A DNA stretch of 30,991 nucleotides from a virus. The translations under genes were made by a program, and so were the position numbers. Each line of letters starts with the position of its first letter. Positions within the stretch are counted from its first letter, which is position 1. The stretch lies in UHGV virus genome UHGV-0237462; one strand, 5' to 3'. Shown here in pieces: positions 6,979-12,175 of the stretch. The notes beneath the pieces are model-generated. The model had not been told where the DNA came from, ran no database searches, and saw only the letters and a list, made by a program, of their open reading frames with translations.

Positions 6979-8151
6979 TTACGCGCTGACCTGGCTGGAG
7001 AAATTCACCAGGTACTGATCGGTGATGCGCTGACGCAGCATCAGGTTTTCAAGTGGCGGCACTGGCGTGTAGTCGTAGTCGATGGTGAGCTTCCCGGCTT
7101 TCAGAGTATCTTTGTCGTTCACCGACTCATCCAGCCAGCAATCACCACCAATGAGATAGCCCTGACTGACCAGGCTGCGCATTTTGGCGCGGATACCTTC
7201 GATAATGTCGCGGGCCAACGACGGGTTCAGCGGTTTGTCCACCGCCCACATATGCGCTTCTGCCATTGTGTCCATAAGTACTTGCGCCGTGCGGGTGTAG
7301 TTTTCGAAGGCAAAGAGCGGGTCATCACTCAGGCAGCGGGAACCCCAGAAGCGGAAACCGTCTTTGCGGATAAGGGTGGTGACGTCGTTCTGGTTCAGCA
7401 GTCCCGCATCTGTTGCCGTGTCCTGCAGATCCCAGAACACATCAGCAGAAATTCCGGTGACACCGTTAACGCCCACGTTGGACAGGCTTTTGTGCCATCC
7501 GGTCTGCTCATCAATTTTGGCGCGCAAACCAAGCGCACGGGCGGTGGCATAAGCCGTTGCTTCGGCATTCAGCACCGTGTCCCAGCCAGTAAAGTCGGGC
7601 CAGATCAGCATTCCTTCACGCTGACTGAAGTTTTCACGGTAAGTGATCGCCTCCTGCACTGTCTTGCAGCCATACGCTGACAGGTAAGCAAACCCACGCA
7701 GGCTTTGCGCCACGCTCAGCAACTCAGTAGCAACGGCTTTGTTATCGTGGCCTGGCACGCCGAGAATGCGCGGTTTAACGCCGAGCTGTGACTGTGCAGA
7801 TAACAGAGCTTTCATGCCTGTTTTTTTACCTTCAGCAGTCACTGCGCCGATGATATTGGTCGTGGTTTCTTCTTCCGTTTCACCCTGCGGCACACGCACA
7901 ACAACGGTCACGGGTTTTGCCTGGTCAGCGATGGCATCCAGCGAACGGGCCAGCGTGCCGGACTCACCCGCTTTACCGCTGGCAGTCAGCACATCAGTGA
8001 TCAGCACGGGTTTATTAAGAGGAAACATTTTTGCATCGGCATCATCGCCCGTGCAGACCATACCCACGATGGCGGTGCTCACCGTGGTAATGGATCGGGT
8101 GCCTTCGTTGATTTCAACAACGCGCACCCCGTGGTGGTAATCCTGAGCCAT
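6979..8151 (-). CDS. FI: Contractile tail sheath protein gpFI
   Basis: 390 aa; P2 FI-like sequence and position. Confidence 0.9.
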
Positions 8152-8293: not shown

Positions 8294-8860
8294 TCAGGGG
8301 GATTCATTACTCTTATTTGCCGGAAATTTTCTATAAATGGTAGAAACGCCTACATCAAAAATCAGTGCAATACGCTGTCTTGATTCTCCGGCCTCGAGTA
8401 AACGCCCAATCTGTGCCCACTGTTTGGTGGTCAACTTAGGACGGCGTCCACCTACTCTGCCTTTGGCACGAGCTGCAGCCAGCCCTGCCCTAGTACGTTC
8501 AACTATCAGTTCGCGTTCCATTTCAGCCAGGGCCCCCATGACATGAAAAAAGAAACGGCCCATTGGGGTGCTGGTATCAATACTGTCAGTCAGGCTTCGG
8601 AAATTCACGCCACGCTGACGCAACTCTTCTATCAGCGTAACAAGATGCCGCATACTGCGCCCCAACCTGTCTAGCTTCCAGACAACCAGCGTGTCTCCTG
8701 CCGATAGTGTCCTGAGCAGTTTTTTCAGCCCCGGTCTGTCGGACTTAGTGCCACTGATTTTATCCTCAAAAATCCGCTCACATCCCGCGCAGTTCAGTGC
8801 ATTACGTTGCAAATCGGTGTTCTGGTCATTTGTTGACACGCGTACATAGCCAATAAGCAT
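8294..8860 (-). CDS. Serine-recombinase DNA invertase (Gin/Pin/Hin/Cin family)
   Basis: 188 aa; N-terminus MLIGYVRVSTNDQNTDLQRNAL and GRFFFHVMGALAEMERELI are near-identical to Gin/Hin invertases as I recall them; C-terminal HTH. Confidence 0.9.
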   Translation of the reverse strand: MLIGYVRVSTNDQNTDLQRNALNCAGCERIFEDKISGTKSDRPGLKKLLRTLSAGDTLVVWKLDRLGRSMRHLVTLIEELRQRGVNFRSLTDSIDTSTPMGRFFFHVMGALAEMERELIVERTRAGLAAARAKGRVGGRRPKLTTKQWAQIGRLLEAGESRQRIALIFDVGVSTIYRKFPANKSNESP

Positions 8861-8915: not shown

Positions 8916-8941
8916 TTTTCTTAAACGTTGGTTTGGGAGAA
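8916..8941. repeat. Left (invertase-proximal) 26-bp inversion crossover site
   Basis: TTTTCTTAAACG TT GGTTTGGGAGAA: 12-bp half-sites around a 2-bp core, gix/hix/cix-like; the inner half-site is the exact reverse complement of the inner half-site of the partner at 10512..10537. Confidence 0.7.
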
Positions 8942-9271
8942 GCCAGATATATCATTCAGCGAGGAGCTAATGCCAATGGTGCATGGATTCGCTGGTCAGA
9001 TGGTGCAATAGAAGTCTTTGGAACGGGTGGGTCTAATGATAATGGACTGGCTAAAGTCGTTTACCCAATTGCACTGCCTAAACTTTCACGTTTTATCAGT
9101 ATCGCGGAAAGAATAAGAACAGATTACGAGAGCACACCTAATAATGTTCACGTTTCAATGATCGTGGATGATCAGGTAACAAATACCGGTTTTTATGCCC
9201 GCTGCCAGATGTACGACGGCAGACCATCATCAAATGCTTTTTCCTGGAGGGTTTATTGTGCGCCTGTTTAA
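8930..9271 (+). CDS. Silent alternative tail-fibre C-terminal cassette (no own start; would fuse to the H constant region after inversion)
   Basis: Open frame from the crossover core to TAA at 9269-9271; the codon phase at the core (G TT) matches the phase of H at the partner core (C TT), so inversion would give an in-frame H constant part plus 113 new C-terminal residues beginning GLGEARY. Confidence 0.6.
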   Translation, partial: GLGEARYIIQRGANANGAWIRWSDGAIEVFGTGGSNDNGLAKVVYPIALPKLSRFISIAERIRTDYESTPNNVHVSMIVDDQVTNTGFYARCQMYDGRPSSNAFSWRVYCAPV

Positions 9272-9455
9272 TCCAGTTACTTTGACTGAAGTAATCCCCG
9301 GCCTTCATGTTGTGACCGGGGCTATTGAATTACCGGAGGACAACTGGTTTTTTACTATGACAGAAATTCCTCAGGGCATGGAGCTAACAATTAATGAGAA
9401 AGGGGAACCAATATTGATTGAGGTTAATCAGTCTCAGGGAAAGCAGGCCAAATAA
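9258..9455 (+). CDS. Putative alternative tail-fibre assembly chaperone, apparently truncated (about 65 codons)
   Basis: GTG at 9258 preceded by GGAGG (9246-9250) with a 7-nt spacer; start overlaps the stop of the alternative fibre cassette; lacks the C-terminal TSTAPDIxWP-type motif present in the 201-aa chaperone; 3' end overlaps the 3' end of the convergent chaperone gene. Confidence 0.4.
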   Translation: MRLFNPVTLTEVIPGLHVVTGAIELPEDNWFFTMTEIPQGMELTINEKGEPILIEVNQSQGKQAK

Positions 9456-10029
9456 TATCAGGCGCGGTGCTGGTATCTGTTGCCGTCACCGCGTCAATGT
9501 AATCCAGCACGGCGTTAAGCCGGGTTGTTTCTGCCTGCATCAGCTTCCGTCCGGCCTGTAATTTCAGCTGAATCAGACTGATGGAAGCTATTGCAGCATC
9601 AATCAGTGACTGACGCTGTGCTTCTGCCGCGTCTACTGCGGCGCTATGCCGTGCCTCAGTATCGGTCACCCATTTCTCACCATCCCATTTATCGTATGGT
9701 GTTAACGGGGCGATAGTTGTGGTATTTTCAGGGTAATCACCCGGAGCTGTGATTTCTTTTGACTCTCCCGTTTTGGTGCTATAGACGATTTCACCGCGAT
9801 GGTCTGGCACATATTCCCATGAGTTAAAATTTGCAGAACGACAGATAGCATAACCCACCTTATATGTGCCAGGGGCATCTAAACAGGAATATGCAGGAAT
9901 ACCGACACCAATGGCAAGATATTCAGTTGAAGCTGAAATATATTCCTGCGTCTCACTATCATAGTTATAAACGGTAATATCCCCCGACTTTGTAGCAATA
10001 AGCTCACTATTTAATATTGCTTTATCCAT
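9424..10029 (-). CDS. G: Tail fibre assembly chaperone (P2 gpG / lambda Tfa family)
   Basis: 201 aa; C-terminal LDYIDAVTATDTSTAPDIIWPAFP is characteristic of Tfa proteins; start overlaps H stop. Confidence 0.85.
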   Translation of the reverse strand: MDKAILNSELIATKSGDITVYNYDSETQEYISASTEYLAIGVGIPAYSCLDAPGTYKVGYAICRSANFNSWEYVPDHRGEIVYSTKTGESKEITAPGDYPENTTTIAPLTPYDKWDGEKWVTDTEARHSAAVDAAEAQRQSLIDAAIASISLIQLKLQAGRKLMQAETTRLNAVLDYIDAVTATDTSTAPDIIWPAFPETD

Positions 10030-11573
10030 TATGCTGCTCTCACGATATAGTTAAATGCAATGTTTCGAGGGCGATTCTCTGATGCTGTTGGTACAACCCT
10101 GGATGCATCAAAACTGAATCCTGTGTAAGGGGTATTTTTTGTTTCATATGTGCCTAGGTTATTATAGATATTTCGCTTAGCTTGAGATGCTAAGGCAAAA
10201 GCACCAGTACCAGTCTGTAACCTGAAAGTTGCTGTATCAATGGTGCCTTTAACTTCATTTATAAATCCTGTTATATTCCGAATGGTATCTCCCTGTGACG
10301 AAAGCAAGCTACGGTTAGTATCAATCCCTCTTCCATCATCCCAGCCACGAATAAACTCACCGCGTAAATCAGGCAATTTATTTGTCGGGTAAACCTTTGC
10401 CAGTTCCGGGTATTCTTCAGCAGAAAAAGCCGCCCCGTTGCATTTCAGCCAGCCTGTTGGCGGAGTGGCGGAAGGCCACGGAACAGGCACGCCAACGGGT
10501 AATGCCGAACCTTCTCCCAAACCAAGGTATGTGAGAAGACCAGCTACATCCTTTCCACTCAAATTAGTCAGCGTATTGTCCAGCGGTTGTTTACCTGCCA
10601 GCGCATTAAGCATTGTCGTGGCAAAGTTCGGATCATTCCCCAGTGCCGCCGCCAGTTCGTTCAGTGTATCCAGTGCCGCAGGTGCAGAACCCACCATTCC
10701 TGCAATCGCCGATTTCACAAAAGCCGTAGTGGCAATCTGTGTATTATTGACCGACTGCGCCGCCGTAGGGGCTGTTGGCGTTCCGGTGAGTGCCGGACTC
10801 GACAGCGGCGCTTTCAGTGCCAGCGCATTGTTAATGGTGGTACTGAATTTCGGATCATTGTTAATGGCTACGGCTATTTCTTTCAGCGTGTCCAGCGTGG
10901 CTGGCGCACCATTAATAAGGGCCGTCAGTGCCGCCTGTACAAACGCAGTGGTCGCAACCTGCGTGGTATTATTCCCCGCCGCTGGCGTTGGCGCTTTGGG
11001 GGTTCCGGTAAATGTCGGGCTGGCTTTTGGCGCGTACTGTGAATGCGGGTCCGGTGCGGCAAGATGTTTTGCCATCTGATCATCCGCGTACACCTTCAGC
11101 TCCAGTGCCTTGTCATCCACATACTTGCGGGTTGCCAGCACTACAGCAGGGTCGATTTTCAGGGTGATATTGTCCGTGCTGCTGGTAATCAGCACCATGC
11201 GCACGGTCTGAGTGCGCCCGCTACCTTCAGCCAGTTGCGGCTTATAGCTTTCCGGGCAGTTGCCCACGGCAATCAATGCCCCGGACTCATCAAACAAGCC
11301 CACTTCACGTATCCACCAACCGCCCTCGTTTTCAGGGATCACCTGTTCGGCAATAATCTGGCTGCTGTTCTGCGGGTCGATATAAAGCATATTCAGCGCA
11401 GCCCGGCGTTTCTCATTTACCAGTGCCGTCTGCTTTGCGTCCGGCGTTGGCAATACTCCACCGCCATCGCCCACCGCCATATGGGTAATTTTTAGCGGCA
11501 CACCGAGCGCGGCGGCGCTGGCAAGTTTCGCCGCGCCAATATCCGTCAGCAGGGTATAAAATTTTGTGCTCAT
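10029..11573 (-). CDS. H: Tail fibre protein gpH (constant N-terminal 350 aa plus invertible C-terminal 164 aa)
   Basis: 514 aa; synteny I-H-G; contains the inner crossover site at codon 350. Confidence 0.9.
   Translation of the reverse strand: MSTKFYTLLTDIGAAKLASAAALGVPLKITHMAVGDGGGVLPTPDAKQTALVNEKRRAALNMLYIDPQNSSQIIAEQVIPENEGGWWIREVGLFDESGALIAVGNCPESYKPQLAEGSGRTQTVRMVLITSSTDNITLKIDPAVVLATRKYVDDKALELKVYADDQMAKHLAAPDPHSQYAPKASPTFTGTPKAPTPAAGNNTTQVATTAFVQAALTALINGAPATLDTLKEIAVAINNDPKFSTTINNALALKAPLSSPALTGTPTAPTAAQSVNNTQIATTAFVKSAIAGMVGSAPAALDTLNELAAALGNDPNFATTMLNALAGKQPLDNTLTNLSGKDVAGLLTYLGLGEGSALPVGVPVPWPSATPPTGWLKCNGAAFSAEEYPELAKVYPTNKLPDLRGEFIRGWDDGRGIDTNRSLLSSQGDTIRNITGFINEVKGTIDTATFRLQTGTGAFALASQAKRNIYNNLGTYETKNTPYTGFSFDASRVVPTASENRPRNIAFNYIVRAA
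10512..10537. repeat. Right 26-bp inversion crossover site, inside gene H
   Basis: TTCTCCCAAACC AA GGTATGTGAGAA; inverted orientation relative to the site at 8916..8941. Confidence 0.7.
10581..11021 (-). repeat. Tandem duplication of a ~73-aa module inside tail fibre H
   Basis: Protein residues ~185-257 and ~258-331 are clearly similar (PTAP..NNTTQVATTAFV..GAPA.LDTL.E.A.A..NDP.F.TT..NALA.K.PL). Confidence 0.5.
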
Positions 11574-12175
11574 GGATTCACTCTCATTGTGTCAATAACA
11601 TGGACCGCCCCGCCTTCATGCGCGGTGCCACCGGAAATAATCGTTTCGTTGATATACGGATAGATCGTGATTTCTTCGCCAAGATAGCTGGCGGCTCCCA
11701 CCCAATGCGGGCCGCTGGTCTGCAGATTGATGGACATGCCGATCATGTGGCGGCTACATGGTTTGGCATCGCTTATCAGTCGCTCAAGTTCCAGATAGGT
11801 ATCTTCAGTGATGCCCTGGTCCTGCACGCCGATATCCAGGCGAAACGTGCCCGGTGTTTCTCCGGTCTGCCACCACTCAATAATGCGGATCAGGAATCCG
11901 AACGGCTCCACCACCCGCCGCACGGCACTGGTGGTCCCTTTATGCTGATGAATATAAAAAGCATCCTTCACCACCTGGCGCTTGACGCTTTCTGTCCAGC
12001 CCTCGTCCCAGCGATCCACAGAGAACGCCCAGGCGAGATAAGGCAGGAAACTGACCGGACAGGTTGCCGGATTCCACAAGTCACGAAGCGGCACCTGCAG
12101 ATCAGAAATCCCGCTGCAGGTTTGCGCCAGTCGGCGCTCCAGTGGTGTTGAACCCGGTGGCAGCAGACTATTCAT
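11570..12175 (-). CDS. I: Baseplate assembly protein gpI
   Basis: 201 aa; synteny J-I-H. Confidence 0.9.
   Translation of the reverse strand: MNSLLPPGSTPLERRLAQTCSGISDLQVPLRDLWNPATCPVSFLPYLAWAFSVDRWDEGWTESVKRQVVKDAFYIHQHKGTTSAVRRVVEPFGFLIRIIEWWQTGETPGTFRLDIGVQDQGITEDTYLELERLISDAKPCSRHMIGMSINLQTSGPHWVGAASYLGEEITIYPYINETIISGGTAHEGGAVHVIDTMRVNP

Follow-up and report, generated by a model that had tools for sequence, protein, structure and literature searches.

The tail-fibre gene H of a prophage carries two similar modules in succession ahead of a DNA inversion site, and the locus raises the question of whether such a repeat can act as a substrate for length variation of the fibre shaft. The window, i.e. 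the whole stretch of viral DNA that was analysed (UHGV virus genome UHGV-0237462, 30,991 nucleotides), had been the subject of a preliminary description in which two consecutive modules of about 73 amino acids (aa) were placed at positions 10581-11021. The answer depends on how real and how old the repeat is, how its unit number varies among related prophages, and which marks the changes of unit number have left in the genes that carry them.

The 514-aa open reading frame (ORF) containing the repeat is, on its sequence, the H tail fibre of a P2-like prophage, since it combines PF12571 with a Collar domain (PF07484, matched at aa 361-408) and has a P2 gpI homologue upstream and a tail-fibre assembly gene downstream (Table 1). 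PF12571 is the N-terminal domain called 'phage tail-collar fibre'. It would attach H to the baseplate, and in many prophages it is 98-100% identical. The gene order is also that of P2 gpH-type fibres, with I, H and the assembly gene near the sheath gene: a 390-aa ORF at 6979-8151 has the same length as the sheath gene found at that place in the loci of relatives, and the order recurs in three related loci (L001-L003). Among named phages, Escherichia phage 500465-1 and several Klebsiella prophages come nearest, with 94-95% DNA identity. With PF12571 and the gpI and assembly-gene neighbours in place, the description of the repeat as an internal tandem duplication in the constant part of a P2-H-type tail fibre holds. 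The first unit begins at aa 173-187, mostly exactly at aa 181, in nearly all unit-bearing relatives examined. Among solved structures, the variable C-terminal part matches a short tail fibre (9cuy_c) and the T4 gp37 tip (2xgf).

Table 1. Features of the H locus and of the adjoining invertible segment (positions in the window)
Feature	Position	Strand	Basis or remark
Serine DNA invertase (Hin/Gin/Cin type)	8294..8860	-	PF00239 Resolvase, E 2.2e-53; PF02796 HTH_7, E 3e-15
Second 26-bp crossover site, reverse complement TTCTCCCAAACC AA CGTTTAAGAAAA	8916..8941	.	inverted repeat, half-site analysis
Alternative C-terminal coding segment	8930..9271	+	simulated inversion; weak PF21882 Gp53-like_C match
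Tail-fibre assembly protein, current orientation	9424..10029	-	PF02413 Caudo_TAP, E 3.5e-30
Tail-fibre gene H, current orientation, 514 aa	10029..11573	-	ORF list; Pfam PF12571 and Collar PF07484
Variable C-terminal part now joined to H (tail-collar/receptor-binding), within the invertible segment	10029..10523	-	Collar domain, PDB matches
26-bp Hin/Gin-type crossover site in H, TTCTCCCAAACC AA GGTATGTGAGAA	10512..10537	.	inverted repeat, half-site analysis
Last constant stretch, aa 329-349, QPLDNTLTNLSGKDVAGLLTY, from R2 to the crossover	10527..10589	-	relatives alike through YLGLGE, then diverging
Repeat unit R2, aa 255-328	10590..10811	-	pairwise alignment, register
R2 sub-module B	~10590-10709	-	split from PDB profile matches
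R2 sub-module A	~10710-10811	-	split from PDB profile matches
Repeat unit R1, aa 181-254	10812..11033	-	pairwise alignment, register
R1 sub-module B	~10812-10931	-	split from PDB profile matches
R1 sub-module A	~10932-11033	-	split from PDB profile matches
Linker, aa 151-180, C-terminal DPHSQY	11034..11123	-	unit coordinates in relatives
N-terminal P2-H-type domain, aa 1-150	11124..11573	-	PF12571 full-length match, E 6.5e-65
P2 gpI homologue, upstream of H	11570-12175		Tail_P2_I match

In their best register the two units, R1 and R2, are adjacent and in frame, repeating at exactly 74 aa (222 nt). Compared as separate halves by BLASTP with composition-adjusted statistics, they share 42 identities over 73 positions (58%, with 73% positives and no gaps; E = 2e-26). 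Their Smith-Waterman score is 218, against 36.5 +/- 6.6 with a maximum of 69 for 1000 composition-preserving shuffles (z = 27). The two modules are thus confirmed; the interval first given for them corresponds to aa 185-331 and covers the same modules in a register shifted by 3-4 residues, which is immaterial for a tandem repeat. The self-comparison of H that had been proposed as a check was run on the separated halves because BLASTP of the whole protein against itself returned only the full-length self-match. Tandem Repeats Finder reported no repeat in 10000-11600, the units being too diverged at the DNA level, so the repeat is visible at the protein level only. Although the richness of this region in A, T, P and N and the blank DNA-level search might suggest a chance or compositional effect of Ala/Thr/Pro-rich fibre sequence, this idea is refuted by the BLASTP and shuffle comparisons, and with the 74-aa unit recurring in register in thousands of other proteins its probability is practically nil.

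The divergence between the units speaks to their age. In register, R1 and R2 are 62% identical in DNA (68%, 81% and 38% at codon positions 1, 2 and 3), and the Nei-Gojobori estimates are dN 0.34 and dS 1.5, with a dN/dS of about 0.23. With dS at about 1.5, synonymous sites are saturated. These values point to old paralogy under purifying selection rather than to a recent duplication. Of the in-register runs of identity, the longest measure 8, 11 and 12 nt, so no homology long enough for efficient RecA-type exchange was found between R1 and R2; such exchange usually needs roughly 20-30 bp of identity. An old duplication sharing at most 12 nt in register makes a poor recombination substrate.

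The placement of the repeat just upstream of an inversion crossover also proved correct. The core AA of the crossover site in H lies at 10524-10525, in codon 350, and R2 ends 21 codons before it. An inverted repeat pairs 8916-8942 with 10511-10537. The two sites have identical left half-sites (TTCTCCCAAACC) and the same AA core, with half-site symmetry of 10/12 at the site in H and 8/12 at the distant one, and the invertase gene adjoining the segment encodes a resolvase catalytic domain followed by a C-terminal helix-turn-helix. When inversion between the cores was simulated, H aa 1-350 (...LLTYLGLGE) became fused in frame to the alternative segment, yielding a 463-aa fibre. Moreover, relatives of H are alike through YLGLGE and diverge directly after it. 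The crossover beside R2 therefore looks real on the sequence: two sites, an adjoining invertase and an in-frame simulated product.

Several further observations concern this segment. H is cut in 25 IMG/VR contigs, and 14 of these stop 1053-1074 nt past its start, which is the crossover site; such assembly breaks probably arise because both orientations occur in the sequenced populations, an indirect sign of inversion. The putative assembly (chaperone) gene for the alternative orientation, at 9195-9455 on the plus strand, has 86 aa at most, or about 60-73 aa when counted from where the alternative H stops. It lacks a Caudo_TAP match, resembles only residues 44-62 of its 136-aa counterpart in L002 and overlaps the end of the opposite assembly gene; it may be truncated. 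A 17-nt direct repeat (16/17) at 8514-8530 and 10436-10452, linking the invertase gene with the variable part of H, is probably due to chance. Additionally, the prophages L001 and L003, whose fibres have three units, carry no invertase or alternative segment between the assembly and sheath genes, unlike L002 and the window, and the invertible cassette is thus present or absent among otherwise collinear tail modules.

The repeat number in related prophages, the comparison that the preliminary description had called for, does vary: genes with one, two, three and four units were found where the constant parts are 83-100% identical. A search with the constant part matched at least 8000 clusters, and units were counted with a unit HMM in the best 120 of these, giving 106 clusters with two units, 13 with three and one (P0001) with four. 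Six of the 13 three-unit clusters (P0002-P0007) have three tandem units in the constant part, and in the other seven (P0008-P0014) the third unit is divergent and lies past the crossover. In these seven proteins of 543 aa, this third unit (aa 357-430, 53% identity) follows YLGLGE in the variable, invertible part, so there inversion would alter the shaft-unit count as well. In a sample of 80 close IMG/VR loci, all with N-terminal identity of at least 97%, two units occur in 76, three in two and a single unit in one; the last locus is cut inside its second unit, which leaves 76 of 79. Two units are by far the commonest state in the H lineage, with frequencies that are rough, being drawn from the ranked matches listed. 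Of 5,426 complete E. coli genomes, 918 (~17%) carry the two-unit constant part with a coverage of at least 80%, and RefSeq labels it 'phage tail-collar fiber domain-containing protein'. BLAST summary counts join pieces, so that two- and three-unit alleles cannot be told apart in them.

Farther from the window, 79 species-representative loci with N-termini 64-98% identical supplied 66 complete H genes, of which 45 have no full unit, 17 have one and four have two. About seven of the 17 one-unit genes additionally have a truncated R1, and another two have an A-only module (L030 and L045). The truncated R1 is a short form of 46 aa (aa 181-226) that precedes the full unit in L009, L013, L016, L020, L023, L024 and L029, from Citrobacter, Enterobacter, Pantoea and Lelliottia. 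In it, sub-module A is joined straight to ...NNALALK and the core of sub-module B is missing. This is a second mode of length variation, below the level of the whole unit.

The origin of the extra and missing units can be read from their junctions. In three-unit alleles the middle unit is always a chimera with an R2 head and an R1 tail, and three different junctions occur, the protein switching after APLSSP in P0004, after ATTAFV in P0003 and P0007, and after LDTL in P0002. At the DNA level, the junction of L003/P0004 follows nt 18 in the shared run AGTCCG, the middle unit having 18 nt of R2 type and then the sequence of its own first unit bar two substitutions. In L001/P0003 the switch falls within TTTGT at about nt 90; here the unit has diverged further from its two neighbours, so that either the event was an older one or another donor took part. 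In L002/P0002 the change from R2 type to R1 type falls near nt 150 in the shared run ACACTGAA; here the middle unit and the third unit of the same allele coincide between nt 4 and about nt 150, and one base differs, at nt 3. The four-unit allele P0001 showed its junctions at the protein level only.

The one-unit alleles are chimeras of the opposite polarity, with an R1 head, an R2 tail and two different junctions. In the IMG/VR contig L121, whose N-terminal coding region is 99.8% identical to that of the window, the single unit is of R1 type as far as about nt 174, without a difference from R1 in its first ~163 nt, and equals the window's R2 from nt 186, with the junction in an 11-nt shared run, AATGAYCCGAA. 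Phage vB_EcoM-640R3 likewise has one unit only, of R1 type, but with an end of R2 type that continues into R2-type sequence downstream, the junction lying in AATGCGCTG. The three R2::R1 junctions thus go with expansions and the two R1::R2 junctions with contractions, and all of them lie, in register, in shared runs of 5-12 nt, a pattern characteristic of rare unequal recombination. No fewer than three expansions and two contractions, all independent, can be read from these sequences. Around the three-unit alleles the tail gene clusters are complete, and these alleles bear different C-terminal tips (Collar, Gp53-like_C and others); among them no single tip type accompanies the extra unit. The chimeric units could in principle have come from recombination between different phages instead of within one gene, as the L001 junction would allow.

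The junctions also bear on the view that R1 and R2 are a recent, unstable tandem duplication working as a high-frequency length switch, in the manner of a contingency locus. Copy number does differ among near-identical prophages, and the R2-type part of the extra unit in L002 matches its neighbour bar one base and hence reflects a recent expansion. However, exactly two units are kept in 76 of 79 close relatives, and the two units of the window are too diverged, with saturated synonymous sites and identical runs too short, for frequent exchange; such a switch is most unlikely. The suggestion of the preliminary description that the repeats are a substrate for length variation is supported: the copy-number variants and chimeric junctions bear it out, with the qualification that the substrate is a poor one, the changes are rare and the junctions are of microhomology size.

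The unit itself is far from confined to H. It begins with sub-module A, of consensus SPxxTGxPxAPT...NxTQIATTAFV, and continues with sub-module B, of consensus APxxLDTLxE[IL]AxAxxNDPxF...NALAxK. A profile built from six units has matches in 48,525 clusters (50% identity) at E<=1e-3, and in 14,615 when the threshold is tightened to E<=1e-10. In a single protein it gave as many as 26 matched stretches, often of sub-module A only, and an hmmsearch of the top 150 representatives gave up to 11 full-length units per protein. The profile also matches 33 PHROG families, mostly annotated 'tail fiber protein', and tblastn located sub-module B alone in minor tail proteins of mycobacteriophages and Gordonia phages and in lambda-type side fibres; A and B also occur separately. 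Solved structures match half-units only, by sequence: positions 1-39 match cyanophage A4 gp24 (9k09, with two tandem copies) and the phiTE long fibre (9cuy), and positions 30-74 match 9d93 'tail collar fibers gp4' and 80alpha FibU (6v8i), in which the matched residues are unresolved. The papers on the matched structures give no description of the residues concerned, and a literature text search for the motif NDPNF returned nothing relevant. In searches of the repeat against Pfam (E<=10) and NCBIfam (E<=1), only spurious sub-threshold matches and no family model were obtained. The multi-unit protein P0122 has no Pfam family either, and precomputed annotations lying on the module in P0122 and P0001 are spurious weak matches such as Acyl-CoA_ox_N and Kre9_KNH. 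An AlphaFold2 monomer model of aa 175-345, made from a 17-row alignment of two-unit segments, reached a mean pLDDT of 45.7 and a pTM of 0.21 and was discarded as unusable; this unreliable model hints at a helical B half and a non-helical A half.

The 74-aa unit would count as an uncatalogued domain family of about 48,500 clusters, with no Pfam model or described fold. A separate reading is that its number is adaptively tuned, fibres with one to four units or with the 46-aa short unit reaching different depths of O-antigen or capsule. Shaft length would then affect fitness, and the repeat would be an evolvable length dial acting together with the invertible receptor-binding tip. This reading is unlikely.

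A stronger case can be made for horizontal acquisition, in which the two units arrived as a ready-made block and serve mainly as homology patches for the swapping of receptor-binding ends, and length is not their main role. The P1-like phage JL22 carries the same two-unit block, 81% identical to aa 181-332, and the unit is spread over the PHROG families and the Myco-, Gordonia- and lambda-type fibres mentioned above. The shaft has also been replaced wholesale behind the same N-terminal domain, as the 45 of 66 complete genes with no full unit illustrate. Mosaic exchange at conserved fibre motifs is moreover a long-standing idea, reportedly put forward by Haggard-Ljungquist in 1992 and Sandmeier in 1994. 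Against it stand the R2::R1 and R1::R2 chimeras in near-identical backgrounds, which show R1 and R2 themselves exchanging in register. We regard acquisition as a block as a possible but somewhat doubtful main account; it is compatible with the explanation preferred here, and both can be true.

The preferred explanation is that R1 and R2 are old paralogous copies of a widespread tail-fibre shaft module whose units are, on rare occasions, gained or lost by recombination, and we consider this very probably correct. The two units would form the middle constant stretch of the fibre, which is likely to be a trimer, with the baseplate-attachment domain on the N-terminal side and the receptor-binding C-terminus, which the invertase can swap, on the other, and each unit would add a fixed increment to the length of the shaft. 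Unequal recombination at the level of microhomology, or replication slippage, between R1 and R2 would rarely add or remove whole units while keeping the frame and the module boundaries, and would leave fibres with one, three or four units in otherwise near-identical prophages. Whole units could be gained and lost with no break in frame because they are adjacent, in frame and share short identical runs. The rarity of the changes fits the low DNA identity of R1 and R2.

The repeat of H is ordinary: repeats of this kind are very common in phage tail fibres, and existing annotation already assigns this one to a phage tail protein. Beyond annotation it is of little importance, and it behaves as expected of a modular fibre shaft. 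Three points are of modest use in practice. The unit boundaries at aa 181, 255 and 329 and the YLGLGE crossover offer natural places for fusions that keep the frame, should P2-type fibres be engineered to a defined length or given new tips. In the chimeric junctions, nature provides a clean case of the gain and loss of whole modules at microhomologies. Furthermore, the 74-aa module merits a domain-family model, as Pfam has none.

Among named systems, P2 itself offers the nearest comparison. P2 gpH (NC_001895, 669 aa) shares with H the PF12571 N-terminal domain and the order I, H, assembly gene. However, it has a single 74-aa unit of R2 type (aa 252-325), whereas H in the window has two, and in P2 this unit follows two PF03406 'Phage_fiber_2' repeats, which H lacks. 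Wphi gpH is built like that of P2, with two PF03406 repeats before one R2-type unit at aa 252-325. PF03406 is likewise a short repeated shaft motif, of P2-, Mu- and lambda-type fibres, but it belongs to another sequence family: it gave no match at E<=10 on the repeat region of the window, against 3.4e-38 on the P2 gpH control. P2 also differs in its C-terminus and has no annotated invertase or invertible segment in the stretch examined. Closer in this respect are P2-like phages with an invertase, such as Escherichia phages 500465-1 and 500465-2, which resemble the window in having a constant N-terminal part and alternative C-termini. Such invertible fibres share with H the serine invertase, the 26-bp site and the crossover in a YLGLGE-type motif just past the unit or units.

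Mu (S/S', G segment) and P1 (S, C segment) are the classical fibres with a constant part and invertible C-termini; their fibres have other N-terminal anchors and are longer. In the P1-like JL22, the two-unit block lies upstream of a YLGL motif, the motif that marks the crossover in H, and its S protein, at 1006 aa, is longer than H with 514 aa. The long tail fibres of T4 offer an analogy for the shaft, although the T4 gp37 tip (2xgf) matches the variable C-terminus of H and not the repeat unit. Beckendorf is said to have described, in 1973, how recombination between repeats in these fibres gives shorter or longer fibres that still assemble. The shaft repeats of T4 gp34 and gp37 may thus follow the same principle as those of H, with modules arranged in series whose number sets the length of the fibre.
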